Virus record (IMG/VR): IMGVR_UViG_3300030328_002122
Location: 81,195-145,194 of that record
Length of the DNA: 64,000 nt
Source of the DNA: a virus
Direction: 5' to 3' (one strand)
Position numbers and translations under genes: made by a program
In this document: one piece after another, positions 6,948-63,942 of the stretch
Layout: each line of letters starts with the position of its first letter
How positions within the stretch are numbered: the first letter of the stretch is position 1
Notes under the pieces: generated by a model
What the model was told of the DNA's origin: nothing
Seen by the model: only the letters and a program-made list of their open reading frames with translations
The model's database searches: none

Positions 6948-6979
6948 TTCATTCTAAAAATTCTAAAGGAACACGATAA

Positions 6980-9900
6980 ATGAGTATAGCAAGAGATAGA
7001 GCAAATAGAAGTGGATCAGATCCTTTACAGATTGATAATACAAAATTAGTTACAGATTCTGGTGATTTAAAGGTTCAAGATGTAAGTGGTAATGAAAAAA
7101 AACTTATAGCATCAGAAATTCATGTAGGAACTGGTGCAGATAAAGTCATATTAAAGAGAGATTCCTCTACAGGTAAAGTTGCAATTCAGACACAAGCATC
7201 TGGAGAAGCTGCAGAAGGTGGTACTGTTGCAAGTACAACTGTTTATGCAACTACAGCTCTTTTACCAACAAATCCAACTGATGGTCAACAAGCTCTAGTT
7301 ACTGCAAATAATTTCATGTTTATTGCAAAATCTAATGGATGGTATAAAATAGCAGAAATTACTAATACTGCTCCTACTATTTCGTCAGCTGGTAATGCAT
7401 CTTATCAGTTTTTAACTGATGGAACTCCAGTTTCTATAGAAATTACTGCTACAGACTCAGAAGTTGGTAGTGCGTTACAGTACAAATATGTAGTAAGTTC
7501 TGGATCAATAGGTTCAACTGCAGCTATTACTTCAAGTGCAACATCTGGTGGAACTTATAGTGCATTAGCCGCCAATACATTGACTACAAACAAATTTTTT
7601 AAAGTGACGCCCAGTACAACTGATGCTCACGCTGGTACTTTTAGTTTAACCTTCTCAGCATCTGATGGTGTTGCAGTTGCAACTTCTAGTGCATCTGAAT
7701 TTACTTTACAGTTTGATGTGCCTGGATCATATAAAGTTGGGCCTTATAATGCTGATACAGACTATTATAGTTTTCCTGCTAGTTCAGATTTTAATTTTGG
7801 ATCAAATAATTTTACTATAGAAGCATGGGTATGGCCTGATGGAGCTGCAGCTGATAAAAGAGGATCTTGGATAGAATGGGGGCCAGATGATAGTAATAAT
7901 GTATTAAGAATATTTCAAGGATCTTCAACACAAAGTGCTTCTAATACAGATAATGATTTAGAAGCAATATATATAGTGGGTGGAACAGATAAATTTGAAA
8001 TTGTTGCTCAAGATGGACTAAAACCAAATGCTTGGAATCATATTGCTCTACAAAGAGTAAGTAATACCATACATCTTTTTGTTGATGGTAGTGAAGTAGG
8101 TTCTGCTTCTTATAGTGGTACAGTTGATCTTTCATCATGGGTTGGATATCTTGGTATGGATAAGTATGGTACTGATAGAACAGCAACTGGTTATATATCA
8201 AATGTTAGAGTTGTAAATGGAAGTTCGGCTTATAGTGTAACTGCAGCTCCTCATAGTGGATCAATTCTTCTTAGTGGTGGTGCTGTTACTACAAGTACAA
8301 GTACTGATTTTACAATGGGTACAGGAGATTGGACAATAGAATTATGGTTCAAATATGGAAGTTCTAGTTTATCTGGAAATAATTATCTTCTTGACTTAGG
8401 TTCTAATGGTTTAAGATTTACTTTTACCAGTGGCTCTATTTTCGCCACATTAAATCATGGAGCTGGAGATACTATTGACTATGATATGGTAGATGATTTA
8501 GGTAGTTTAGATACAAGTAAATGGTATCATCTAGCTTTTACTAGAAGTGGTACAACCCTTAAACTTTATTTGGACGGCGTACTAAAAGGTACTGATACTG
8601 GTATCAGTAGTAATCACGCAACTAATACTTTTACACTTGGTGGTTATGGTGGTGGTGGTTATAATTGGCAAGGTGGTGTATGTGATCTTAGAATTGTAAA
8701 AGGTAAAGCAGTTTATACAGGCGCTTTTACACCACCAAGTGGCCCACTTACAAAAACTGGTGGAACTTATCCTAGTAATGTTAATATAAGTAATCCTTCT
8801 GCAAGTCAAACAATTATGTTACTTGGTAATAATGCAAGTAGTGTTACAGATACAAGTGATACTCCTCATACCATGAGTCATGGTGGTTCAGTTTCTGCTA
8901 GTTCAGCCGTACCAATTGCAGCCAGTATAACTAAACCAACATCTGGTTTAACTGCTGTAACAAATACAAAACTTTTAACTATGAAAGGGGCAGAACCATC
9001 AAAAGTAACAAATGGTGGAACAACTCTTGCATCTCAAGGTAGTAGTGAATTGAATGTAACATCTACTCATATCCCTGCTTGGGGTACTACTTGGACATTA
9101 GAAACATGGGCTTATTTTACTTCTGGTGGTTCTTATAGAAATATATTTCATGGCGGCGCTGTTGGTAGTGCTTGGTATATGGCAAGAGTTGGTGCAGCTA
9201 TTCAACCATATAATATGGGTTTTAATTACTCCAATATGGGATCAACAAGTGTAAATCAATGGCATCATATTGCTGCGACTTGTAATAATGGTAGTTTTGT
9301 TTTATATATTGACGGCGTTTCAGCTGGTACTGCGACAGCAAGTGCCAGTGGTACTAACCCACTAGGTGTTGGTAGTAGTCAAGATATACGTTTGTTTACT
9401 AATAGTGTCGATAGTCAAGACATGACAGGAACATTATCCGACTCAAGAGTTGTCGTTGGAACTTGTGTATATACAGGCGCTTTTACACCACCAAGTGGCC
9501 CACTTACAAGAACTGGTGGAACTTATCCTAGTAATACAAATGTAAATACAAGTATTCCTTCAGCTCATACTTATTTGTTAACAAATCAAACTTCTTCTGG
9601 ATTAGTAACAGACAATTCTCAATACAATGCGACTATGTATCAACTTGGTGTAACTACAGGTGCTGGATATGAGAAATTACTAGATGTAAATTCACAAGTA
9701 ACAGCAAAAGTTTTAACTAAATATGGTGATGCCAAACATGATTATGCTACTCCATTTGCACAAGGTTCTGGTGGATCGGCATTTTTTGGAACTTATCTTG
9801 GCGCCAATAATGCTAATATTGGTACTCTTATTCCAACTGCAAATAGTGATTTCACTTTGGGTACTGGTGATTATTGTGTAGATGGTTGGTTTAAAAATAC

Positions 9901-11131
9901 ATTTCCTGTAAATACAGGTATCACTCACAATGAAAGACTTTTTGATATTGGTAATAATGGTTGTAGAATATTTTTTAAAAATGGACTAATAAAAGCACAA
10001 ACTGATCAAAGTGTTCAAATGACTTACACACCTGGCACTACTGACGCTGTCTTTCCTACAAATGAATGGCATCATTATGCTCTACAAAGATCAAGTGGTA
10101 CTACAAAATTTTTTCTTGATGGTAAAGAAAAGACTAGTATTTCTGATACTGCAAATCACACATCTAATACTTGTAAGATTGGTGGTTATGGTGCTGATGA
10201 TACTAATGATAAGAAATTTCTTGGTTATATGTCTGATTTTAGAATTGTTAAGGGTGCAACTGCTCATACTGTAACATCTGCGGCCTCATATGGGGGCGGT
10301 TCTATTACTTTTGATGGAACTGGTGACTATGTAACTGGTGTGGTAACAGCAGCAGGAACTAGTGATTTTACTTTAGAATGTTGGTTCAATTTTGATGCTA
10401 CAGGACATAAAGGTATTATGCATATAGGAAATAATGCATGGAGTGGTTCTAATAGTGCTGGTATTGGTATGGCAATAAAACCATCAATAAGTGGTTATCA
10501 AATATATGCAAATGATACTTACACAAATACTAGTAATCAAGGTGTTATACCAGCTACTGGCAGTTGGCATCATGGTGCTATGGTCAGAATAGGTCAAACT
10601 ACAAGATTATATATTGATGGTATAGAAACTATATCTGTAGCAGATCCTAAAAATTATACATCAACACACATTATGATTGGTGGATTTTATAGTACATCTC
10701 AAGTAATGGATGGAAAAATTTCAGACGTAAGATATGTTGTCGGAACAGGAGTTTATAGTGGCAACTTTTCCCCACCAGCTGGAAGATTGACATTAACTGG
10801 TGGAACTTATTTGGATACAACAAATGTCAATACATCAATACCTTCTGGTCATACTAAACTTTTAACTGCAAATGAAGCAACTGGAGCTCCAAATGATGAT
10901 AGTGCATCAAGTGTATCTTTAACTGCTAATGGTGATGCAGCTGCAAATGCCGCAACACCTTTTGTTGATACAATACCATTACCAACATCAAAATCTACTG
11001 CAATAACAGGTACAGTATTATTAACTTGTCAACAAAGTACAGGCGATTTTACTGATGCAAGTTCAAGTAATCATACAATATCGCAAGGTGCTACTGGTAC
11101 AGTATTAGCAAAAAGACACCAACCATATTAG
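6980..11131 (+). CDS. LamG/concanavalin-A-like repeat virion fibre protein 2
   Basis: Five LamG-like modules; shared MxxARDRAxRSGS N-terminus and Ig/cadherin-like segment. Confidence 0.8.
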   Translation: MSIARDRANRSGSDPLQIDNTKLVTDSGDLKVQDVSGNEKKLIASEIHVGTGADKVILKRDSSTGKVAIQTQASGEAAEGGTVASTTVYATTALLPTNPTDGQQALVTANNFMFIAKSNGWYKIAEITNTAPTISSAGNASYQFLTDGTPVSIEITATDSEVGSALQYKYVVSSGSIGSTAAITSSATSGGTYSALAANTLTTNKFFKVTPSTTDAHAGTFSLTFSASDGVAVATSSASEFTLQFDVPGSYKVGPYNADTDYYSFPASSDFNFGSNNFTIEAWVWPDGAAADKRGSWIEWGPDDSNNVLRIFQGSSTQSASNTDNDLEAIYIVGGTDKFEIVAQDGLKPNAWNHIALQRVSNTIHLFVDGSEVGSASYSGTVDLSSWVGYLGMDKYGTDRTATGYISNVRVVNGSSAYSVTAAPHSGSILLSGGAVTTSTSTDFTMGTGDWTIELWFKYGSSSLSGNNYLLDLGSNGLRFTFTSGSIFATLNHGAGDTIDYDMVDDLGSLDTSKWYHLAFTRSGTTLKLYLDGVLKGTDTGISSNHATNTFTLGGYGGGGYNWQGGVCDLRIVKGKAVYTGAFTPPSGPLTKTGGTYPSNVNISNPSASQTIMLLGNNASSVTDTSDTPHTMSHGGSVSASSAVPIAASITKPTSGLTAVTNTKLLTMKGAEPSKVTNGGTTLASQGSSELNVTSTHIPAWGTTWTLETWAYFTSGGSYRNIFHGGAVGSAWYMARVGAAIQPYNMGFNYSNMGSTSVNQWHHIAATCNNGSFVLYIDGVSAGTATASASGTNPLGVGSSQDIRLFTNSVDSQDMTGTLSDSRVVVGTCVYTGAFTPPSGPLTRTGGTYPSNTNVNTSIPSAHTYLLTNQTSSGLVTDNSQYNATMYQLGVTTGAGYEKLLDVNSQVTAKVLTKYGDAKHDYATPFAQGSGGSAFFGTYLGANNANIGTLIPTANSDFTLGTGDYCVDGWFKNTFPVNTGITHNERLFDIGNNGCRIFFKNGLIKAQTDQSVQMTYTPGTTDAVFPTNEWHHYALQRSSGTTKFFLDGKEKTSISDTANHTSNTCKIGGYGADDTNDKKFLGYMSDFRIVKGATAHTVTSAASYGGGSITFDGTGDYVTGVVTAAGTSDFTLECWFNFDATGHKGIMHIGNNAWSGSNSAGIGMAIKPSISGYQIYANDTYTNTSNQGVIPATGSWHHGAMVRIGQTTRLYIDGIETISVADPKNYTSTHIMIGGFYSTSQVMDGKISDVRYVVGTGVYSGNFSPPAGRLTLTGGTYLDTTNVNTSIPSGHTKLLTANEATGAPNDDSASSVSLTANGDAAANAATPFVDTIPLPTSKSTAITGTVLLTCQQSTGDFTDASSSNHTISQGATGTVLAKRHQPY
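8714..9535 (+). repeat. 66-bp direct repeat (8714-8779 and 9470-9535, 1 mismatch) at LamG module junctions
   Basis: tatacaggcgcttttacaccaccaagtggcccacttacaa(a/g)aactggtggaacttatcctagtaat read directly at both sites. Confidence 0.9.
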
Positions 11132-11136
11132 GATAG

Positions 11137-11144
11137 TATAAATA
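11137..11144 (+). promoter_or_regulatory. T4-type late promoter
   Basis: TATAAATA just upstream of the SD and ATG of 11162. Confidence 0.8.
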
Positions 11145-11161
11145 CTTAAAAAGGAATAACT

Positions 11162-14100
11162 ATGGGAAAATCAAGAGATAGAGCTAATCGTTCTGGAAGT
11201 GATCCAGTAAATATCGGCACAACAAGGTTGGCTGTTGATTCTGGTAATGTAAAAGTCACTGCTCAAGATGGTACAACATTTAAAAAGATTTTTGCAGAAG
11301 AAGTGCAAGTAGGGGTTGGTAATAATAGAGTTATACTTAAAAGAGGTTCAGATGGAAAAGCTGAGTTTCAATCTACAGCTGATGGTGGTGGTTCAACAAC
11401 AAATTTAACAGTAGGTGGTTCTAGTACTGTAACTAATCCTTCCGATTTACCCATTACTGGAAATCAAGCTGGTGATACAATATTGGTAACATCAAATAAT
11501 AATTTGATGATCTACAATGGTTCTGGTTGGTACAAAATAGCTACCATAACTAATGCAACACCTACAATATCATCAGCTGGAAATGCGAGTTATACTTTTG
11601 CTACAGATGGTACTCCAGTAAGTATCGAAATTACAGCATCTGATCCAGAGGGTGTTGCATTACAATATAAGTATCAAGTCACAACTGGTTCTCTTGGAAG
11701 TACAGCTGCTGTAACAAATAGTGCAACATCTGGTGGAACTTATAGTGCATTAGCCGCCAATACCTATAGTAATAATAGATTTTTTAAAGTGACGCCCAGC
11801 ACAAATAGTGCTCATGCTGGTGCATTCGCAATCACATTTTCTGTAACTGATGGTGTTAATACTGCTAATTCAAGTGCATCTTCATTTACTTTGGCATTTG
11901 AGGTTTCTGGTTCATTGAGATTTGATGGTACTGGAGATTATATAACTGTTCCAAGTTCTACTAATCTCCAATTAGGATCATCAAACTTTACAGTAGAATT
12001 TTGGTTGTATTTACCTGTAGCAATTGCTAGTAATTATCAAATTTATATTGGAAAAGGGCATAATGCTGATAGCAGTAGAGAATGGTATTTAGAGGGTATG
12101 TCTGATGGAAAAATTGATTTATTTTGGTCAACTAATGGCGGTGGTTGGAGTAGTGCTGAAGTAACTGGAGTTTTACCTATAAGGACATGGCATCATATCG
12201 TTATGCAAAGAACAGGAAGTACTTTAAAGGTATATACAAACGGCAACGAATCATATGTTAATAGTTCTTTTCCAACTATTCATTCGGGCAGTCAAATATT
12301 AAACATTGGCGGGTTCAATGATGGAAGTGGACTATATTCAAATAGTTTTATGTCAAATGTAAGACTTATAAAAGGTTCTAATGCTTATACTACAACTGGT
12401 GGATCTATTAATCTTACTCCATCAAATGCAAATGTTTCTCTTGCCACAGATGCTGATTATTTGATAGGTAGTAGTGAAGATTTTACAATTGAAGCTTGGG
12501 TTTATACACCTTCAAGTTTTGCATTAAATAATGCTAAGTGGAGAACAGTTTATTTTTGTGGTACTAATGGTGCATTACAAATTGCATATGATACAGCTGG
12601 AAAACCTGTTTTTTATTCTGGAGGCAATATTATTCTTGCTACTACTGCTTCAACGGCATCAACTTGGGAACATATAGCTTTTACTAGAACTGGTTCTTCT
12701 ATGGTATTTTATCGAAATGGTGTCGCTGATGGTACAGCTACAAATAATGCAGCACATGGTGCAAATACTAATGCACATTATATTGGTGCTTATAGTGGAA
12801 CTGAAGGTGGTCTTGGTGGTTATATATCTAATTTTAGATTTGTTGTAGGTACAGGTGTATATACTGGTGCTTTTACTCCACCTCATGCTTTAACAACTAG
12901 TGGTGGAACTTATGCTTCTACTGCAAACGTAAATACATCATTTACAGCTTCACATACTATGATATTAACTGGACAAAGTTCATCTTCAGTAACAGACGCA
13001 AGCCAGAAAAATGAAACTTTAACACTAGGAAGCAGTGCAGCTGCAGCTGCAAATAGTCCATTTATTACAGTACCAACTGAACCAATAAGTGCTATATCAA
13101 ATACTATGTTATTAGTAGGAACTGAAAAAGAATCAGTTGCTGTTACAGATGGTGCATATAGTTTTGATGCAGTTACATCAAGATTAAAAACTCCAGATTC
13201 TTCAAGTGGTGCTTATAATCTTCCTGCTGATACACCAATGACACTTGAAATGTGGTATTATATGAGAGCCACTCCAGCTAATTCTGTATATCTTTGGTCA
13301 TTACACGATTATCAAGTTCATATGACTTATTATAGTAGTTATAGTAGTCACAATCAACCTCATATGCAACTTTATCTTGGTAAAGGTGGTTCTACTAGAT
13401 TGTATGGTAATGGAAATACAGGCACTTCTCTTAATACTTGGTATCATGTTGCTGTAACTAGAAATTCGAGCAATGTTTGGAATATGTATATTGATGGCGT
13501 AAAACAAACACTTGGTGCTGGTGGTGGAGCTGGTGGTTCACAAATAACTAATAATAGTGGTTGGACAGGAGCATCTGAAGCTGCAAGAATAGGAATAAAT
13601 TGTTATCCAGTAGTTTCTAGTGCTTCTTGGGCTGTAAATTCTGGTATGAATGGAGCTCTTTCAGATATAAGATGGGTCGTAGGAACTTGTGTTTATTCTG
13701 ATAGTTTTACTCCACCTTCAGGCCCATTAACAAAAACTGGTGGAACTTATCCATCAAATACAAATATCAATACATCTATAACATCTTCTCACACTAAAAT
13801 GTTAACTGCACAGAGTAGTGGTGTTGCTGGTGGTTTAGAATTTACTGGTAGTGGTGAAACTACTACTGCAAGTCATGCTGGTTTTGATTTTGGATCTAAT
13901 GATTTTACTGTAGAATTTTGGTACAAATGGAAAGATAATAGTGGGTATCAAACTCTCATAGATCAATATTATCATGTGGGGGCTCGTCATTTTTTACTTC
14001 AAGCTAATACTAGTACAACTAAATGGGGAGTATTTATAAATCAGACTCATATTGGAAGTGCTTATGAATCATCAGATGCTACTATAGGTATATGGCATCA

Positions 14101-15286
14101 TTATGCTATAGTAAGAAATGGTAGTGCGTTTAAGATGTATAGAGATGGCGTAGAAACTATATCTGCTACTGTTTCTGGATCATTAAGTGGAACAGAAGTT
14201 ACAAAATTTAATCATGCATCACATACCACTTCTGGATCAGTTAGTAATTTACGAGTGGTAAAGGGTACAGCTGTGTACACAAGTGCTGGTTTTACATTAC
14301 CAACTGGTAATTTAACTGCAATAAGTGGAACATCTTTATTGTTATTCCAAGAAAATAGTGGAACAACATTAGATGATGGTAGTACAAATAATGTTACTAT
14401 AACAAAACATAGTGGTCATAATATTATAACTGGTGGTGGCCCATATTATTGGAAAGATAATAGTGATAGTGGTTTTAGATTATCTGCATCTGGTGCTGGA
14501 AATGCTACTAAAACAACTGGTGTAACATACCCTTCAAAAGATATAAGCACACAAAATAATTCATTATCTTTTAAAGGAGATACATCACACAGCTTTGCAA
14601 CTCCATTTAGTGATGGTGGTGGTGGATCTACATTGTTTTGTGCTACTCAGACACTTGGCGGTAATCATTCGGGGCATTATGCTGATGCTCCAGATAGTGC
14701 CCAATTTAGTATGGGTACTGGTGATTTTACTATTGAGGGTTGGGTATATCCTTATGATCAACAACATAATCGAGGATTTTGGGCTTTAAGTACTACTGCT
14801 GCTGACAGTTGGAATTGGAATAGTGGAAATTCATTAGGATTTTTAAGAGGGTATGGTGATAGTGGAAATTTAGGGTTTTATGGTATTGGCAACGAACATA
14901 ACTTAACTACTACTGTTAATCCAGCGATTAATACTTGGTTTCATTTTGCCTTTGTTAGAATTTCTAACACTTTAAAGATCTATATTGATGGTGTTGAAAA
15001 GCATTCTGCAACTGATAACACTAATTATACAGGTGATGGTATAAAAATTGGTGGTCTTGGTGGTGTCGGTGGTGTAGCACATTTTAATATGTCTAATTTC
15101 AGAATTGTTAAGGGAACTGGTGTCTATACAAGTGCTTTTAGTGTACCAACTTCACCATTAACTGCTATAACAAACACAGTTTTATTAACTTGTAATGACA
15201 GTAATAAAGTTGATGATGCAAGTACATCTGGTCATGTTATCACTACTTATAATGATGTGATTGCAACAAGATTTCATCCATTCTAA
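11162..15286 (+). CDS. LamG/concanavalin-A-like repeat virion fibre protein 3
   Basis: Five LamG-like modules; paralog of the two upstream genes. Confidence 0.8.
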   Translation: MGKSRDRANRSGSDPVNIGTTRLAVDSGNVKVTAQDGTTFKKIFAEEVQVGVGNNRVILKRGSDGKAEFQSTADGGGSTTNLTVGGSSTVTNPSDLPITGNQAGDTILVTSNNNLMIYNGSGWYKIATITNATPTISSAGNASYTFATDGTPVSIEITASDPEGVALQYKYQVTTGSLGSTAAVTNSATSGGTYSALAANTYSNNRFFKVTPSTNSAHAGAFAITFSVTDGVNTANSSASSFTLAFEVSGSLRFDGTGDYITVPSSTNLQLGSSNFTVEFWLYLPVAIASNYQIYIGKGHNADSSREWYLEGMSDGKIDLFWSTNGGGWSSAEVTGVLPIRTWHHIVMQRTGSTLKVYTNGNESYVNSSFPTIHSGSQILNIGGFNDGSGLYSNSFMSNVRLIKGSNAYTTTGGSINLTPSNANVSLATDADYLIGSSEDFTIEAWVYTPSSFALNNAKWRTVYFCGTNGALQIAYDTAGKPVFYSGGNIILATTASTASTWEHIAFTRTGSSMVFYRNGVADGTATNNAAHGANTNAHYIGAYSGTEGGLGGYISNFRFVVGTGVYTGAFTPPHALTTSGGTYASTANVNTSFTASHTMILTGQSSSSVTDASQKNETLTLGSSAAAAANSPFITVPTEPISAISNTMLLVGTEKESVAVTDGAYSFDAVTSRLKTPDSSSGAYNLPADTPMTLEMWYYMRATPANSVYLWSLHDYQVHMTYYSSYSSHNQPHMQLYLGKGGSTRLYGNGNTGTSLNTWYHVAVTRNSSNVWNMYIDGVKQTLGAGGGAGGSQITNNSGWTGASEAARIGINCYPVVSSASWAVNSGMNGALSDIRWVVGTCVYSDSFTPPSGPLTKTGGTYPSNTNINTSITSSHTKMLTAQSSGVAGGLEFTGSGETTTASHAGFDFGSNDFTVEFWYKWKDNSGYQTLIDQYYHVGARHFLLQANTSTTKWGVFINQTHIGSAYESSDATIGIWHHYAIVRNGSAFKMYRDGVETISATVSGSLSGTEVTKFNHASHTTSGSVSNLRVVKGTAVYTSAGFTLPTGNLTAISGTSLLLFQENSGTTLDDGSTNNVTITKHSGHNIITGGGPYYWKDNSDSGFRLSASGAGNATKTTGVTYPSKDISTQNNSLSFKGDTSHSFATPFSDGGGGSTLFCATQTLGGNHSGHYADAPDSAQFSMGTGDFTIEGWVYPYDQQHNRGFWALSTTAADSWNWNSGNSLGFLRGYGDSGNLGFYGIGNEHNLTTTVNPAINTWFHFAFVRISNTLKIYIDGVEKHSATDNTNYTGDGIKIGGLGGVGGVAHFNMSNFRIVKGTGVYTSAFSVPTSPLTAITNTVLLTCNDSNKVDDASTSGHVITTYNDVIATRFHPF

Positions 15287-41210: not shown

Positions 41211-43085
41211 TTAAATAGGAAATGCAAAATTAGGTATAGTATTATCTCTAACAGGCCAAGGAACAACTCCACCACCAGAACCACCACCACTTACATTATT
41301 ATTATTTACAACACTATTATTAGTGATTATTGATCCACCACCACCAGTTCTTTTTTCTTCTGCAAGTTCACTATTTGCAGTTGCAACTGCACTACCTAAT
41401 AGTGTTTTTAACTCTGTAGTTAATTGTTCAACAAGTTTTGCATCTTGATTTCTTCCTTTATAATCAAGGCCTCTGTAAACATTTTCACCAGACTCTGATC
41501 TTGCAATTCTATCTTTTGCTTCTTGTATCTCTGTTTGAACTTGAACTCTTTTTTGTTCATCAGTTGGTGTTTTTACTAATTCCTCTAATTCAACATCAGC
41601 TGGTTCTTGAACTGTTTCTTCAACTGGTGTGTCATTTTTCAGAAATGGTATATACCCCTCTAAAAAGTCTGGTATAACTGCTCTTGCAATATCTTTAACA
41701 TTTATATCAAATAAACCACCAAAGAAATCTGTAACTTTTTTTACTGTCTTTTCAAACAATTCACTTATGTTTGGAAGTTCTGGTAGTTTTAAGTTGGTTA
41801 ATACATCTCTTACATCTTTAAATGGGTCAAATGTGGTTAGAAAAGTTCGTAAACTACCAAAGATATCTAGGTTTGCAAAGAACTCTCTGATATCACCAAA
41901 AAGATCTAGGTTTGCAAAGAACTCTCTAATACTACCAAAAAGATTTAAGTTTGCAAAGAAACCTCTTATATCTTCAATTTTCTGACCTACTGTATCTGGT
42001 ATAGAAGTAAAAAATCCTACAAGGTCATCATATATACCAGTTATTCTTTCAATAAATGCATCTGATGGAGTAAATGCAGCTATGGCTGCAGTAAACATAT
42101 TACTAATAAAATCACTTACATTTTGCAAAAATCCATTGATAAGATCCTCAAAAGAAAAACTATCAAGTTTTGCAGCTATTTCTTCAAATCCAAGTTTTGT
42201 CAAGAGCCAAGATGTTAGATCTTTTAACAAATCAAGTGGAAGTCCTATGATAGTAGAATAAAATTCTATACTAGCTTGTTTTATCGCTTCCATAATACTG
42301 CCAGTTTCTCTCCAAGTATCCATGAAACTCTTAAATGCATCATACAATCCTTTTGCAGTTACCAAAATTCCTGCTACTATTGCAACGATAACTGCACCTG
42401 TAGCAGCTGCACCTAATCCTATGACTCCACCAATTGCAGTTAGACCAGCAGCGATTGCAGTAAAAGCCCCACCAAGACTTGTTACGATACCAACTATTTT
42501 AACTATCGCCCAACCACCTAAAACTGCACTTAATGTTGTCATTTGAGCAGTATGATCAGTAAATAAAGTTTTTAATTCTTCCCATGATGGTGAAGTGATA
42601 AAGCCTAATATTGCAGGCCAAAAAGGATGCAAAACAAATTTTTTCACACCTTCTACAATCGCAAGTGCTTTTTCTGTTATTTTAGGCCATTCCTCACTAT
42701 CCATAAATGATAGTAATCCAATCAGAGCAGCACCAAACAAGAATTTTTTTGCAAGATTCCAAATACCACCAGCTGCTTTCTTTGCAGAATCTAATGCATT
42801 TTTTTCTATAATACCAGTTAGAGTACCTACACCCTTTGTAACACCAAAAATACCTTTTTTTATAACTTTAAATATTGACAGTTGTTCTCTTTTATCTTCT
42901 GTTTCTTTTGCATCAGTTTTGTTTTTATCTTGTAGTTCAACACCTTGTGCTTGGGCCATTTGATTTTGAGTATCAGATATATTTTCTAATACTTTCAAAA
43001 GTCCTTCTTGACCTTTATTATTTGCTTGTTGTTCTGAAACTAAGGTTTTGAAATCTTTAGCGCCACCAAAACTTACTTCTACCAT
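41211..43085 (-). CDS. tape-measure-like tail protein (T4 gp29 position)
   Basis: Long amphipathic helical protein with central hydrophobic segments and 11-aa F/W-periodic repeats; downstream of gp26/gp51. Confidence 0.6.
   Translation of the reverse strand: MVEVSFGGAKDFKTLVSEQQANNKGQEGLLKVLENISDTQNQMAQAQGVELQDKNKTDAKETEDKREQLSIFKVIKKGIFGVTKGVGTLTGIIEKNALDSAKKAAGGIWNLAKKFLFGAALIGLLSFMDSEEWPKITEKALAIVEGVKKFVLHPFWPAILGFITSPSWEELKTLFTDHTAQMTTLSAVLGGWAIVKIVGIVTSLGGAFTAIAAGLTAIGGVIGLGAAATGAVIVAIVAGILVTAKGLYDAFKSFMDTWRETGSIMEAIKQASIEFYSTIIGLPLDLLKDLTSWLLTKLGFEEIAAKLDSFSFEDLINGFLQNVSDFISNMFTAAIAAFTPSDAFIERITGIYDDLVGFFTSIPDTVGQKIEDIRGFFANLNLFGSIREFFANLDLFGDIREFFANLDIFGSLRTFLTTFDPFKDVRDVLTNLKLPELPNISELFEKTVKKVTDFFGGLFDINVKDIARAVIPDFLEGYIPFLKNDTPVEETVQEPADVELEELVKTPTDEQKRVQVQTEIQEAKDRIARSESGENVYRGLDYKGRNQDAKLVEQLTTELKTLLGSAVATANSELAEEKRTGGGGSIITNNSVVNNNNVSGGGSGGGVVPWPVRDNTIPNFAFPI
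41862..41960 (-). repeat. 33-bp (11-aa) tandem repeat in tape-measure-like gene
   Basis: IRGFFANLNLFGS/IREFFANLDLFGD/IREFFANLDIFGS; DNA unit ag(a)tctaggtttgcaaagaactctct. Confidence 0.85.
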
Positions 43086-43094
43086 TTTTCTGTC

Positions 43095-43421
43095 CTACTT
43101 TTTCGCAAAGGTTTCTTTTGCATAGAAAGCTGCAACTATAGCTGCAACTGATACAAAGTATGTTGGAGCCATATCACCTAATATACCACTTGCTTTATCT
43201 AATCCAATCCACTCTGCAAGAACTACTGAAAAAGGATATAATAACATACCAAACAATGCAAACCATGCCATGTTGCGTTGTGCATCGGCCTTCTTATCTT
43301 CATTCTCTAATCTCATCATTTCTTTACTCATTGCAATTTCCTCATCGCTTACTATCCCATCTCCATCCACATCAAAATCTGCATATTGTGAACCTTTTTC
43401 TAATTTCTTTTGTGCAGCCAT
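43095..43421 (-). CDS. membrane protein with EF-hand-like DxDGDG motif
   Basis: Start MAAQKK after AGAGAGG; DVDGDGIVSDEE followed by two TM segments. Confidence 0.65.
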   Translation of the reverse strand: MAAQKKLEKGSQYADFDVDGDGIVSDEEIAMSKEMMRLENEDKKADAQRNMAWFALFGMLLYPFSVVLAEWIGLDKASGILGDMAPTYFVSVAAIVAAFYAKETFAKK

Positions 43422-43474
43422 TTTACTTTCCTCTCTATAATCCAAATGATGTTTAATTGATATAAAATCTACCA

Positions 43475-43597
43475 CTAACAGTTACATTTACTACACTCGC
43501 AACCTGTACAAACATCATTTGCACATTGTTCACATTCTTTTTCACAATGACAATCATGTCCACACTTTTTACATTTTCCGTTACAAGTACAACTCAT
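43475..43597 (-). CDS. metallothionein-like 40-aa protein, not in ORF track
   Basis: AAGGAG SD; MSCTCNGKCKKCGHDCHCEKECEQCANDVCTGCECSKCNC* (13 Cys, 2 His). Confidence 0.75.
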   Translation of the reverse strand: MSCTCNGKCKKCGHDCHCEKECEQCANDVCTGCECSKCNC

Positions 43598-43616
43598 AGT
43601 GCTCTCCTTGTTCTAT

Positions 43617-43814
43617 TTATCCTTTTCCATCTGCTTTAGCTTGTCTTTCAGCGGTTTTTTCATCATCTAACCATTGAAGAAGAAGTTTTGTGTATATTTC
43701 CCTCTCCCAAGGCATCATATATTCTAGTTCTGTTAAAGAATACTTATGATGTTGCATAAGTTGGAAATTTAATTGATAATAGTTTTCCAACGTATTATGA
43801 GAGAGGGATACTAG
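43617..43814 (-). CDS. gp51-like baseplate hub assembly domain, probably the -1 frameshift extension of gp26
   Basis: LSHNTLENYYQLNFQLMQHHKYSLTELEYMMPWEREIY..LL; no SD-backed start; in -1 frame from T TTT TTC at the gp26 end. Confidence 0.75.
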   Translation of the reverse strand, partial: LVSLSHNTLENYYQLNFQLMQHHKYSLTELEYMMPWEREIYTKLLLQWLDDEKTAERQAKADGKG

Positions 43815-44515
43815 AAAAAATCTTGTAGTCCTTCTAATGTTAAATCACTTTCAACTTCAGTTTTAGGATTCTTCACAGTAATCTTATGTTTCACTTTAGG
43901 CATTGTTTCAAAAAAACTTTGCACTTTCACAAATTGTTCATGTGACATTGATTCAATAAAATCATCTAATTCTTTTTCTTCCATGTCGTTTTTAGTATAA
44001 ACATTCTCTGCATCATATATTTGATTAACACAGCTTTTAATAACATTAAAAGTTGCAACTGCATCATTCTTTCCATCTGTAATTTTTACAACTTTGCTTA
44101 TTTCTGGATAATCAAATACTATCCCTACATCATCACTAATTTTTATATTATTAGTATGATCTTTGTCTTTAATACATTGTACTTCAGATAGATTTACATC
44201 TACTTTTACTTTTGTTTCTTCATCATCTGGACAAATTACTGTAACAGCAGTTGTTTCTCCAATAGACTTACATCTAATCTGTAAAAATACATATTCTATA
44301 TCAAATGTTGGTAATTTTTTTGAATCTAATTTACCAAACGTACACGCATCAATAAGATCCTGTACTGCACGTATTAAAGATTGTTGACTTCCTTCTTGTT
44401 GTGCTAACATTAACATTTTTTCTTCTTTCACAAGAAAGGGTCTAAACTCTACTTTTTGTCCTGTAGAGGGTAATGTCAATTCATATTTAGCGGTTGCTAA
44501 CTTTGGTAACGCCAT
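43811..44515 (-). CDS. gp26: baseplate hub assembly protein (T4 gp26-like)
   Basis: MALPKL....YELTLPSTG..V.FRPFLVKEEK, FDIEY.FL.IR.KS.GE and GLQDFF motifs. Confidence 0.9.
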   Translation of the reverse strand: MALPKLATAKYELTLPSTGQKVEFRPFLVKEEKMLMLAQQEGSQQSLIRAVQDLIDACTFGKLDSKKLPTFDIEYVFLQIRCKSIGETTAVTVICPDDEETKVKVDVNLSEVQCIKDKDHTNNIKISDDVGIVFDYPEISKVVKITDGKNDAVATFNVIKSCVNQIYDAENVYTKNDMEEKELDDFIESMSHEQFVKVQSFFETMPKVKHKITVKNPKTEVESDLTLEGLQDFF

Positions 44516-44540: not shown

Positions 44541-45182
44541 TTATCTTGCACCAGTACCGATTACTGATGTTAGGGTTTGTCCACCAGAAACAGTTTTGGG
44601 TGGATTTTGAGTTGCAAATGTTCTGGTATCACTATTATCCATTACTTGTCCATTTGCATCTATAAAAACAAAATCTCTGAAAACAAAAGAAACCTCTTGT
44701 CTTGCAATGTCCATATTTTGAGCGCTAAACTCTACTGCACCAACTGTTTTTGGAAAACATTCATTCAATCTAAGACCAGCTAATGGTAAACCATTTTTTC
44801 CTAATTGGAAAACTTCTATTGGTGTTACATACTGATTATAATATTCTAGATTGTAATTATTTGGTTTAACAACAAGATCTTGCCACTTTAAGAAATACTG
44901 TCTTTCAAAATGTTCTGCTGATAAAAAGAATGTCATACTTATATCTTCTGCATATGTCAATCCCTGAGCCATTTCATAAGTTGGGCCATATACTGTTTCG
45001 TTTGTAACAGTTCTTATATTTTTACCAGGCATGGTGAACGCTTCAACTCTAAAAGATACGTGTCTATCTGCGTCTGGATCTCTTATTGCTGGTGGTGATG
45101 TTATTTTTACTTCAAATCTATTTGCAAGTGCATGACCACCATACTTACTAAAACTTGCAATGAACTCATCTAGTGCAGCCAT
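44541..45182 (-). CDS. tail tube-like baseplate protein (gp54/gp19 family)
   Basis: NRFEV, MPG..I.T, F.KWQD, YY..Y, L.ECFPK.V motifs. Confidence 0.7.
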   Translation of the reverse strand: MAALDEFIASFSKYGGHALANRFEVKITSPPAIRDPDADRHVSFRVEAFTMPGKNIRTVTNETVYGPTYEMAQGLTYAEDISMTFFLSAEHFERQYFLKWQDLVVKPNNYNLEYYNQYVTPIEVFQLGKNGLPLAGLRLNECFPKTVGAVEFSAQNMDIARQEVSFVFRDFVFIDANGQVMDNSDTRTFATQNPPKTVSGGQTLTSVIGTGAR

Positions 45183-45768: not shown

Positions 45769-46197
45769 TTAACCAAGATGATCTTCAGTTAGAATTTTAA
45801 ATTCCATATTTCTATCTTTACACCATTCCAACGCATATTCCCACTTGGCTTTATTAACACCCCATGTCTGAACTTCCTTTATATAATATTTGGTTTTCTT
45901 CTTACCGACAGGTGGTTTACATTGTTTCTTTGGTTTAACTTCTATAATCATTTTCTTGATAGTACCATCATTCTGTTTTACTTTTACATAGAAATCTGGA
46001 AAGTATCTGTGTGTTCTACCATCAAGAGGTGACTTGTATGGTATGATTATTTCTTCACTACCCCACTCTAGTATTGCATCAGTTCTATCACAATAGACCA
46101 TAAACTTACGTTCCCACAAACTCCTGTAAATTATGTTTGATGGGTCACCTTTATATTTTCTAGGTTTTGTGGGAATATATCTACCTTTGTATGTCAT
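45769..46197 (-). CDS. gp4: head completion nuclease (T4 gp4)
   Basis: KYKGDP.NIIYRS.WE, W.SEE..IPY, HRYFPDF, EVKP and N.AKW motifs. Confidence 0.92.
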   Translation of the reverse strand: MTYKGRYIPTKPRKYKGDPSNIIYRSLWERKFMVYCDRTDAILEWGSEEIIIPYKSPLDGRTHRYFPDFYVKVKQNDGTIKKMIIEVKPKKQCKPPVGKKKTKYYIKEVQTWGVNKAKWEYALEWCKDRNMEFKILTEDHLG

Positions 46198-61108: not shown

Positions 61109-62173
61109 ATGCATACACAAAAACTATCATATTTTTCTGGTAGAGATGGATTTCTCTGGTGGGTAGGTGTTGTAGAAGATCGTACAGATCCTATGTCGCT
61201 AGGAAGGGTACGAGTCAGAGTATTTGGTTATCATACATCAGATAAAACAAAACTTGCAACAGAAGATTTGCCTTGGGCGTTTTGTATTCAACCTTGTACA
61301 TCTGCTTCCGCTGGTGGCGTAGGAACTTCTCCTACGGGCCCGATAGAAGGAAGTTGGGTAATTGGTTTCTGGAGAGATCCAGACTTTCTACAAGAACCAA
61401 TGGTATTTGGAACGATACCTGGCTACATAGGGCCTAATGGTGCTCCTCAAGGTGGAGCTCCCTATGATTATTCACAAGATCAAAATCGTGAACCTGGCAC
61501 AATAAGTGAAAAAACAGTAATTGCAGATGGGGTTAAAACAGAATTTGATTTACCAGCGAGTTCTCAAGACTCCACAGTTCTAGTAACTAAAGATGGTGTG
61601 CCAGATAAAGCGACAAACGCACCACCCTCATCATATATGAATACCGAAGTTTCTACATCAGAATTTGCTGGTGCAAGAGTATATACTAAAAATGACTTTC
61701 CTTTATCTACTAGGGGTAGTAAAACTGCTAATGCTTTAAATAGATTATTACCATTCGTAAGAGATAGGATTGCAAAAGGAATTAATAATTTTATTCAATC
61801 CAATAGTGGTTGGGATATGAGTATAGGTTCTGGTTACAGAACAAATTCACAACAACAAGAATTGTATAACGATTGGTTAAGACGAAAGAAATATAAAGCT
61901 GCAAAACCTGGCTTCTCTTGGCATAACTTTGCGTGTGCAGTTGATATAACAATATTCAGAGCAGATGGTTCGTATGATGATGGAAGAAAAGGAGATAGTA
62001 ACTATACAGGCAGAGCTCGTTCTGCATTTAAATCTTTCAATATGCAAAATGGTATTCCGAATGATATGGGTCACTTTTATCCATCAGAGTTTCCAAAATA
62101 TCCACCAAAGGCTGTAAGGATAGGAAAAAAGTCTGTTACCAAATATGCGAAAGAAAGAGGAGTGTCAACTTAA
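61109..62173 (+). CDS. gp5: gp5 N-terminal part: OB-fold plus M15 peptidase
   Basis: WWVGVVEDR.DP..LGRVRVR..G.H, LPWA, G.WV.GF..D; then SGYRT..QQ..LY, AKPG.S.HN...AVDI, D..HF; TATAAATA at 61083. Confidence 0.88.
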   Translation: MHTQKLSYFSGRDGFLWWVGVVEDRTDPMSLGRVRVRVFGYHTSDKTKLATEDLPWAFCIQPCTSASAGGVGTSPTGPIEGSWVIGFWRDPDFLQEPMVFGTIPGYIGPNGAPQGGAPYDYSQDQNREPGTISEKTVIADGVKTEFDLPASSQDSTVLVTKDGVPDKATNAPPSSYMNTEVSTSEFAGARVYTKNDFPLSTRGSKTANALNRLLPFVRDRIAKGINNFIQSNSGWDMSIGSGYRTNSQQQELYNDWLRRKKYKAAKPGFSWHNFACAVDITIFRADGSYDDGRKGDSNYTGRARSAFKSFNMQNGIPNDMGHFYPSEFPKYPPKAVRIGKKSVTKYAKERGVST

Positions 62174-63942
62174 TGGCATATGAAATAGAAGATAGAAAAA
62201 TTAAATTTGATAAACCACCACCCAAAGGTACAGAAGTAAATCTAAAAGTTTCTACTCAACAATCACTTAATGGTTTTGCTGATCCTCGTTCTTTTTATCC
62301 TCGCAGAGTTAATGAAGTTGATACAAACAGACTTGCAGTAAATGACGCAACTAAACAACACCCTGTAGTTAATCTTAAAAGACAAAGAATAGATGATCTG
62401 GTAGGAGAACCAGAAACACAGTACGCATCAAAGTATCCATATAATCATGTAAAGGAAACGGAGTCTGGTCATATCGTAGAGTTTGATGATACGCCAGGCC
62501 ATGAACGTATACATGAATATCATAGGTCTGGTACTTTTTACGAAGTACATCCAGATGGTACAAAGGTTACAAAGATTATCGGTGATGATTATGAAATTGT
62601 ACATCAGAATAAAAAGTTAAGAGTAAGAGGAAACATTGAAGTCTATTGTGATGGTGATGCAGATTTATATGTGCGTGGTTCTTTGACAGGACAGGTAGAC
62701 GAGAATATAGATTTACACGCTGGTAAGAATATTAATATTCATGCTGGTAAGAACATGAGATTTTACGCAAATGACTCTATAGAGTTTACAGCACAGAAAG
62801 AACTAACAGCAACATCTGTATCAAAGATGACATTACAATCTCAAGCAGATGTGAATATTAATGCAGAGGGTAACTACCTTACCAATATAAAAGGAACAAG
62901 TGATATTATTTCAGATGGAAAAATTGCCATAAAATCTCCAAGTTCAATAATAATAAATGGAAATAGCACTATTGACATTCTTGGTGGTGGTAATATGAAC
63001 TTAGAAGGTAAAGAGATAAAATTAAATGGTGGTGCGTTTAGATCAAGTGTAGAAAAAGTAGAAGATACAAAATATAAAGACAGTTCTGGTGTAAATTTAT
63101 ATAGTGAAGGTAAAGAAGTTGACGCACCTGTAGAAGCTACAGTACTTGATGCAAAAGACCTAAGTGCATTAGCAGATGAACAATCTGTTTTTGGTGAAGA
63201 TGATATTCCAAAATCAGATGATGATATTAAATCTGATGTTGCTTCTGGAAATGCATTACCTTCCTCATCTTCAGATTATAGTTATAATTCTATTGATGGA
63301 AGTTATAGTTCTGAAAGTGCATCAAGACCATTGATATCAGTTCCATCAGTTCCAGACTTTCCTAGAGAACATGGATATTCAACTGGACAATCAGAATTAC
63401 TTTATACAGAAGCTGCAAAGGTTACATCAGTAACAAAGCCGTCTAAGATAATACTTCCAGATGATGGATCTATAGATTATAATATGTACATATCTTCCAA
63501 GTATAAACTTTCCAAACTTACACTTGCACCACCTGTAGGACAGAAAATAAACAAAGGTAAAGAAGAAGCAGAAAAGATTATTAATAAATTAAGAGTTCTT
63601 GCAGTTAATTGTTTAGATCCATTACTTGCAGAATATCCTAAACTAAGAATTAACATGGGATATTTTGAATCAAGACCAGGCACATCTTCTGCACATTCAT
63701 TAGGTGAAGCAGTTGACATACAAGTTGCAGATGCAAGTAAAGGAGAATACTTTGAGATTGCAATATGGATTAGAGAAAACTTACCACATGATTCTATCAT
63801 ACTACAATATAGAACTACTGGTTCTGGTATGCCTTGGATTCATCTTGGGTGTAAGGAGTCTGGTAATAGATCAGATATGATAACACAATACAATGGAAAA
63901 ACAACAACCGAATTAGGACAGATTGCACAGTATTATGCCTAA
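62173..63942 (+). CDS. gp5: gp5 C-terminal part: beta-helix spike plus M15A peptidase
   Basis: YPYNHV.ETESGH..EFDDTPG.ERI...HRSGTF.E..PDG, V.G repeats; C-terminal S.H..GEAVDI...WIH. Confidence 0.85.
   Translation: MAYEIEDRKIKFDKPPPKGTEVNLKVSTQQSLNGFADPRSFYPRRVNEVDTNRLAVNDATKQHPVVNLKRQRIDDLVGEPETQYASKYPYNHVKETESGHIVEFDDTPGHERIHEYHRSGTFYEVHPDGTKVTKIIGDDYEIVHQNKKLRVRGNIEVYCDGDADLYVRGSLTGQVDENIDLHAGKNINIHAGKNMRFYANDSIEFTAQKELTATSVSKMTLQSQADVNINAEGNYLTNIKGTSDIISDGKIAIKSPSSIIINGNSTIDILGGGNMNLEGKEIKLNGGAFRSSVEKVEDTKYKDSSGVNLYSEGKEVDAPVEATVLDAKDLSALADEQSVFGEDDIPKSDDDIKSDVASGNALPSSSSDYSYNSIDGSYSSESASRPLISVPSVPDFPREHGYSTGQSELLYTEAAKVTSVTKPSKIILPDDGSIDYNMYISSKYKLSKLTLAPPVGQKINKGKEEAEKIINKLRVLAVNCLDPLLAEYPKLRINMGYFESRPGTSSAHSLGEAVDIQVADASKGEYFEIAIWIRENLPHDSIILQYRTTGSGMPWIHLGCKESGNRSDMITQYNGKTTTELGQIAQYYA

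Follow-up and report, generated by a model that had tools for sequence, protein, structure and literature searches.

A gp26-like gene in a 64,000-nucleotide stretch of DNA from an uncultured marine T4-like phage (IMG/VR record IMGVR_UViG_3300030328_002122, positions 81,195 to 145,194; the whole stretch is referred to here as the window) very probably uses a programmed -1 ribosomal frameshift of the lambda G/GT type, which would yield one chaperone of 234 amino acids (aa) and another of 299 aa. The longer protein is predicted to end in a domain, Gp51_C, that is encoded in the -1 frame beyond the gp26-like stop codon. The anatomy of the sequence, its conservation among relatives, and the homology to gp51 of the T-even phages are seen directly, and they carry the argument that follows.

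The gp26-like open reading frame (ORF), the putative "G" form and a member of a family of hub or tail assembly chaperones, occupies 44515-43811 on the minus strand (234 aa), and its 3' end reads GAT TTT TTC TAG (43822-43820, 43819-43817, 43816-43814, and 43813-43811, respectively). The slippery heptamer T TTT TTC (43814-43820, minus strand) lies in the X XXY YYZ phase and abuts the TAG stop, exactly as a preliminary description of this DNA had reported. Translation in the -1 frame from the slip site begins FFLVSLSHNTLENYY and remains open down to a TAA at 43619-43617, as was also claimed. This -1 extension (the Gp51_C or "T" domain; 43617-43820, minus strand) comprises 67 codons from the slip site, 65 of which give new residues, plus the TAA; the predicted transframe product (the "GT" form; 43617-44515, minus strand) would thus contain 234 + 65 = 299 aa. 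A stop 8 codons ahead of the Phe-Phe pair closes the -1 frame on its upstream side, so the overlap contains a single slippery site and the extension could be entered only there. The earliest candidate start codons in the -1 frame are a TTG at 43790 (codon 10) and an ATG at 43757 (codon 21); no Shine-Dalgarno (SD)-like sequence precedes either of them in the window, in agreement with the preliminary description, and SD sequences are present before the gp26-like ORF and before two neighboring ORFs of 40 and 126 aa. An SD-like GAAGGA (43829-43834, minus strand) ends 9 nucleotides (nt) before the heptamer and is a candidate upstream stimulator. Its GG is invariant in the alignment of relatives; the same GG codes for a Glu-Gly that is kept also in T2 gp26, so the motif may be incidental. 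A DNA contig from an independent sample (n = 1) covers 43732-43999 and is gap-free across the slip site; the lone matching RNA contig spans 43560-43616, short of it.

Conservation was assessed in two sets of relatives. The first consists of 80 viral-contig loci encoding gp26 proteins 43-97% identical; one (L023) ends inside gp26, leaving 79 evaluable loci, and removal of identical junctions and of one short locus left 62 non-redundant junctions. The Gp51_C domain is found in the -1 frame in all 79 evaluable loci as well as in the window, and the tblastn match starts at query residue 1, at the T run. The T TTT TTN motif is invariant and the -1 relation constant in 62/62 junctions. Every codon that precedes the run has T as its last base (AGT 34, TCT 10, GAT 6, GCT 6, AAT 5, and ACT 1), although the residue may be S, D, A, N, or T; the next codon is always TTT, and the third is TTC in 48 junctions, TTA in 11, TTT in 2, and TTG in 1. 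The zero-frame stop follows the heptamer immediately in 12 junctions, after 1 codon in 49, and after 8 codons in 1 (L038), yet in this last locus, too, a T TTT TTT is followed by the -1 continuation. Since other in-phase [AT]3[AT]3N heptamers occur at least once in 34 of the 62 related gp26 ORFs, the heptamer alone is not above chance; what gives it weight is its conservation, together with the frame relation.

The second, more distant set took Pseudomonas phage pf16 and Caulobacter phage Cr30 as its anchors and comprises 82 loci, 75 of them evaluable; KVP40 and Cr30, used as queries in the locus search, gave 2 loci each. The Gp51_C domain is present in 75/75 evaluable loci, and the -1 frame with an in-phase heptamer in 55/55 non-redundant loci (TTTTTTC in 34, TTTTTTT in 21). 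Comparison of gp26 3' ends across relatives, the check proposed in the preliminary description, accordingly finds the -1 relation and T TTT TTN kept throughout (79/79 and the window, 62/62, and 55/55). Ten of 13 cultured records carry the heptamer (KVP40, S-WAM2, phiN3, Cr30, RSP15, vB_OspM_OC, pf16, Ps15, Ci1, and phiM9), and it is missing from T2, Det7, and K476. Vibrio phage nt-1 carries it too, bringing the count to 11 of 12 cultured phages outside the Ackermann group and the Tevenvirinae.

Codon usage and coding signal at the junction were compared with those of the surrounding sequence. Other Phe-Phe pairs in the same genes have TTC as the first codon in 28 of 70 cases, versus 0 of 62 at the slip site. 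In the Tevenvirinae T2, PM136, and myPSH1140, in which gene 51 is separate, the homologous Phe-Phe of gene 26 is TTC TTT or TTC TTC (3/3) and is preceded by a codon ending in A or G (n = 3). Upstream of the heptamer the coding periodicity is that of the zero frame, and it switches frame at the heptamer. In the -1 frame, column entropy by codon position is 0.89/0.74/1.40 from the gp26 stop to codon 20 and 0.83/0.44/1.37 further downstream; the third position is the most variable in both stretches, so that coding periodicity in the -1 frame is evident from just past the gp26 stop, well ahead of most start codons. The first ATG, GTG, or TTG in that frame ranges from codon 5 to codon 35, with an SD-like sequence before it in 5 of 62 junctions. 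These results bear out the earlier observation that conserved sequence begins before the first ATG: the match starts at the T run itself, and the varying start codons mostly lack an SD.

The two frames encode parts of a protein that is whole in the T-even phages. The gp26-like ORF matches PF12322 (T4_baseplate; E = 6.2e-67) with residues 9-234 on profile positions 2-218 of 219, and phrog_150 (E = 1.3e-72) over positions 5-232 of 282, and is by these profile matches a full-length member of the T4 gp26 family. Residues 2-65 of the -1 peptide match positions 56-119 (of 121) of phrog_634, "baseplate hub assembly catalyst" (E = 5.6e-27), and the peptide also covers positions 231-276 of phrog_150, the profile on which the zero-frame match ends at 232. 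The name Gp51_C (PF28602) for the -1 domain comes from clusters in the Atlas (score 0.96-0.97), where the copy from the window starts at residue 22, corresponding to the first ATG. By BLASTP the -1 peptide of the window aligns to residues 212-244 of T2 gp51 (E = 5e-5). T2 gp51 itself (249 aa) matches PF12322 over residues 1-201 (E = 4.3e-55) and covers phrog_150 positions 13-280, and T2 gp26 (208 aa) covers positions 14-235; the two T2 proteins align to each other at E = 1e-5. On this sequence evidence T2 gp51 is a gp26 paralog that carries the same C-terminal domain. As a gp26 body joined to a Gp51_C domain, T-even gp51 is collinear with the predicted long form, and T-even gp26 with the short one. 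Natural in-frame fusions also occur, rarely, in metagenomes: among 29 long proteins, four clusters, each of 1-2 sequences, are fusions of this kind (294-302 aa), and one such fusion aligns to T2 gp51 in a single stretch through the junction. T2 genes 26 and 51 are on opposite strands, gene 51 beside genes 27-28-29 and gene 26 beside gene 25. Table 2 of Leiman et al. (2010; PMC3004832) lists gp26 and gp51 as T4 hub assembly chaperones, and passages of the same review describe both as required by T4 and gp51 as absent from the finished particle.

A structural model of gp26 (AlphaFold2 [AF2]; predicted local distance difference test [pLDDT] score, 87.6) is compatible with a chaperone-like fold at the N-terminus. 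In VIA-align comparisons, residues 1-95 of the model match 3fgx (Z = 7.7), the HK97 tail assembly chaperone 2ob9 (Z = 7.1; root-mean-square deviation, 4.2; 84 residues aligned), YqbN (3klu; Z = 6.8), and 5ir0 (Z = 5.3), values that are middling on the scale of the aligner (<8); the next unrelated row has Z = 4.1. The N-terminal domain as modeled fits such a fold. When the gp26 alignment was searched as a profile against PDB sequences, no match fell below E = 0.08. In a model of a natural fusion, the added part forms four helices, the first of which runs across the junction.

The RNA downstream of the heptamer appears structured in the window. The 122 nt past the heptamer fold with a minimum free energy (MFE) of -36.2 kcal/mol (z = -6.08), a value reached by 0 of 200 shuffled sequences. 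The predicted fold is a three-way junction with an 11-bp closing helix that begins 5 nt past the heptamer; the 5' arm of this helix lies at 43798-43808 and its 3' arm, within the codons for PWERE, lies at 43699-43709 (both minus strand). In 23 relatives of the PWERE type, RNAalifold predicts the closing helix and nothing else; one of its pairs covaries (U-A in 13, C-G in 10) and is broken in none. The 23 rows were selected, and relatives with local hairpins were excluded. On the gp26 tree the C-G state appears in at least three separately supported places. A downstream z below -2 is found in 32 of the 62 relatives, versus 11 of 62 for a control stretch within gp26. No conserved simple hairpin was found across the junctions within 70 nt of the heptamer, and an Rfam search of 43400-44000 gave no match at E <= 1. 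A universal downstream stimulatory helix was considered and rejected, since pairing over the 62 junctions is barely above that in shuffled alignments. From folding and covariation, the closing helix is a probable stimulator in the clade of the window and not a family-wide feature.

Taken together, these features suggest how the two proteins could be made; that ribosomes slip here, how often they would do so, what the RNA structure contributes, and what the two proteins bind are inferences. Most ribosomes would stop at the gp26-like TAG and release the 234-aa protein. A minority, with two tRNA-Phe on U UUU UUC, would move back one nucleotide and then read 65 further codons in the -1 frame to give the 299-aa protein that ends in the Gp51_C domain. 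The RNA structure 5 nt after the heptamer probably helps the slip in the clade of the window, and the adjacent stop codon and the upstream GAAGGA possibly aid it. By analogy with lambda gpG/gpGT and with T4 gp26/gp51, both forms may act jointly as non-structural chaperones in the assembly of the tape measure and of the hub and tube.

Several observations weigh against a frameshift of this type. TTT encodes Phe in 77% of cases elsewhere in the related gp26 genes, and T-ending codons account for 31-80% of codons in these genes, depending on the amino acid; since the genome is AT-rich, part of the T run is expected. The loci compared are related, not independent. Two cultured phages, the Salmonella phage Det7 (Ackermannviridae) and the Vibrio phage K476 (unclassified in its record), have the -1 relation without the canonical heptamer (they read GAG ATT TTC ATT TAA and CTT TTT GCG TAA TG, respectively); they may slip at a different site or initiate the second frame separately. 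Seven of the 11 heptamer-bearing cultured phages (KVP40, nt-1, phiN3, Cr30, RSP15, Ps15, and phiM9) also have an ATG that overlaps the gp26 stop (TAATG or TGATG), 4-5 codons past the slip site, so a separate small protein could be made there by coupled re-initiation. The proposed closing helix is paired in 72.6% of cells across the 62 junctions, versus 71.1% in shuffled alignments; the cyanophage-like PWEK clade has little downstream structure, and both arms of the helix are also under coding constraint. For the chaperone-like fold, the Z values are middling, as stated, and a Foldseek search of the PDB with the gp26 model found nothing at E <= 0.001 (2ob9, E = 1.2).

Two of these observations, codon preference and the stop-overlapping ATG, are those to be expected if gp26 and Gp51_C were two genes, with Gp51_C made alone as a protein of about 47-58 aa from TTG 43790, from ATG 43757, or through re-initiation by ribosomes that have terminated at the gp26 stop, and with the T run a by-product of a Phe-Phe pair in AT-rich DNA. 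Database annotation appears to agree with this arrangement. By tblastn, 1413 phage records contain a gp26 relative and at least 549 contain the Gp51_C peptide; in the 16 annotated phage records inspected, the Gp51_C region is either a separate small coding sequence (CDS) or empty, and a joined CDS occurs in none (0/16). The preliminary description had called the frameshift arrangement hidden by standard annotation. Gp51_C sequences in the Atlas and from gene callers are cut short or extended arbitrarily. A two-gene arrangement nevertheless fits the sequences poorly. In the window the candidate starts lack an SD, unlike the starts of three neighboring genes; across relatives the position of the first start ranges over codons 5-35, although the peptide already shows conservation and coding periodicity right from the heptamer. 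A T-ending codon before the run for five different amino acids is left unexplained, as is the TTC in the Tevenvirinae, and T-even gp51 is a case in which the domain functions while attached to the C-terminus of a gp26-like body. We therefore regard two independent genes as an improbable account. Separate initiation is weak for the window and possible as an additional route in distant relatives.

The small ORFs called in the databases have a feature of their own. In many lineages gene callers place its start 14 codons ahead of the Phe-Phe pair, at an ATG-TGG (or GTG-TGG) in the -1 frame; such starts give widely differing N-terminal stretches (MW...), and the resulting "15-79" pattern is found in about one-third of the best 150 representatives. 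The -1 frame of the window has stops where other lineages carry the ATG-TGG start.

Transcriptional slippage, in which RNA polymerase would add one U in the U6 run, predicts the identical fusion protein, and a conserved homopolymer run suits it as well as it suits ribosomal slippage; the rare in-frame fusions in metagenomes also indicate that a run one base longer either is tolerated or forms easily. Bacterial RNA polymerases generally require a stretch of about 9 or more A or T residues to slip productively, and the run here has 6. The strict X XXY YYZ phase, a zero-frame stop 0-1 codon away in 61 of 62 junctions, and a structure beginning 5 nt further on are traits of ribosomal frameshifting, and a transcriptional origin of the fusion is very unlikely. 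That a homopolymer sequencing error or a recent frameshift mutation split a single gene has next to nothing to recommend it and is in effect refuted by conservation of the split: homopolymers are error-prone and rare single-ORF versions exist, yet many samples show an identical split (79/79 and 55/55 loci), as do cultured phages sequenced in different laboratories, and the independent DNA contig spans the site without a gap. The lambda-like programmed frameshift proposed in the preliminary description is supported by the comparative tests, and its analogy with lambda G/GT gains from collinearity with T2 gp51 and from the possibly chaperone-like N-terminal fold; it is the strongly favored explanation of the gene pair.

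The chaperone pair sits between a tube-family gene and a tape-measure-like gene, all on the minus strand. The upstream neighbor (44541-45182; 213 aa) matches the tail tube family phrog_45 (E = 4.6e-37) and, weakly, PF06841 (E = 0.0016); it encodes a putative gp54-like tail-tube initiator of the gp19 family and is not the major tube gene, the gene in the same position being annotated as gp54 in nt-1, phiM9, and Ci1. The major tube gene, gp19, is elsewhere in the genome. Genes similar to gp2 and gp4 lie further upstream on the same strand. On the other side, a 624-aa ORF (41211-43085, minus strand) is a putative gp29-like tape measure gene, with matches to six PHROG tape-measure families (E = 7.4e-8 to 2.1e-4) and no match in Pfam; 526 nt separate it from the -1 frame stop. 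The pair is therefore upstream of the tape-measure-like gene, as had been described, and is not adjacent to it, since two small ORFs intervene (43095-43597, minus strand; a Cys-rich one of 40 aa, then one of 126 aa). Each of these has an SD-like sequence and an ATG, and neither has a family match in PHROG or Pfam. The 40-aa ORF (43475-43597, minus strand) contains 13 cysteines and is preceded by the strong SD AAGGAG. The closest cultured relatives of the window phage are Methylophilales phage Melnitz and Pelagibacter myophages.

Three side observations concern other genes of the window. The gp4-like head-closure ORF (45769-46197, minus strand) matches phrog_218 (E = 3.9e-61) and also the N-terminal domain of TnsA-like endonucleases (PF08722; E = 7.1e-26). 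The gp5-like hub protein and tail lysozyme is split into two plus-strand ORFs with a one-base overlap (61109-62173 and 62173-63942); the first (354 aa) contains the N-terminal part of phrog_430 and a match to an endolysin family, and the second (589 aa) the later part of phrog_430. Three adjacent large ORFs on the plus strand (4068-15286; 959, 1383, and 1374 aa) share repeated matches to phrog_3545, phrog_24074, and phrog_13163 and are, from these shared families, probably fibre or adhesin paralogs.

The -1 frameshift that gives lambda gpG and gpGT is well established (Levin 1993; Xu 2004, 2013, 2014; cited in Atkins et al. 2016, PMC5009743). The sections of that review concerned with tail assembly describe the G-T frameshift as conserved among long-tailed phages "except T4" and have G binding the tape measure and T binding the tube subunit (Atkins et al. 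2016). A literature search, with subscription papers such as Xu et al. (2004) beyond its reach, found no paper reporting a frameshift between gp26 and Gp51_C. A broader interpretation, to which we give slightly less than an even chance, is that this frameshift is a true homolog of lambda G/GT and is ancestral to a T4-like assemblage that includes the Kyanoviridae, pelagic and methylotroph myophages, Straboviridae of the KVP40 and nt-1 type, and rhizobial, Caulobacter, and Pseudomonas relatives. The T-even phages would then have replaced the recoding signal by gene duplication and fixed the long form as gene 51; gp26 and gp51 would be chaperones of the gp29 tape measure, and a device of two forms would set tail length in all long-tailed phages, with T4 no exception.

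If the frameshift proposed for the gp26-like gene is real, T4-like phages, including the abundant cyanophages and pelagiphages of the ocean, share the near-universal chaperone frameshift, and T4 is a derived case in which the short and long forms come from two paralogs. It would also give a concrete, testable function to T4 gp26 and gp51, whose roles in hub assembly are described as having stayed unclear in the hub-related part of the review by Leiman et al. (2010; PMC3004832), and would call for corrected annotation of phage records, at least 549 of which hold the Gp51_C region; in all the annotated records inspected, this region was given an arbitrary start or omitted. Recoding and duplication would then form a natural pair for studying the need for a fixed ratio of two chaperone forms.

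Comparison with lambda G/GT shows several shared traits. In both systems the frames overlap, the first ORF carries a slippery heptamer close to its end, and the second frame lacks a start of its own; the gene is located between tube-family and tape-measure genes, and the modeled N-terminal domain of gp26 may be chaperone-like. According to the T4 literature, the finished particle requires neither of the T4 relatives (PMC3004832). The proteins of the window, in contrast, have no sequence similarity to gpG or gpT, and the gp26 body is larger (234 aa), with extra domains past residue 95. The slippery heptamer of lambda is G GGA AAG, and that of the window is U UUU UUC. The setting differs as well, as the gene pair belongs to a contractile tail of the T4 type, in the context of hub and baseplate assembly, and is followed by two small ORFs before the tape-measure-like gene.

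The -1 frameshift of Escherichia coli dnaX depends on an upstream SD-like sequence, a heptamer, and a downstream stem-loop. A signal of the same three parts is possible in the window, with GAAGGA 9 nt upstream of the heptamer and a structure 5 nt downstream of it. In contrast to dnaX, the structure in the window extends over about 110 nt and is closed by a long-range helix, with no simple hairpin; it is conserved in only part of the family, and the upstream GG also encodes a conserved Gly.

A further comparison is with T4 and T2 themselves. The ORF of the window shares with them the gp26 family body (PF12322), and the gp51 body together with its Gp51_C domain is collinear with the long form predicted here. 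T2 has two paralogous genes, whereas in the window one gene is proposed to give both forms; the end of T2 gene 26 has no T run, and that of the window gene does.

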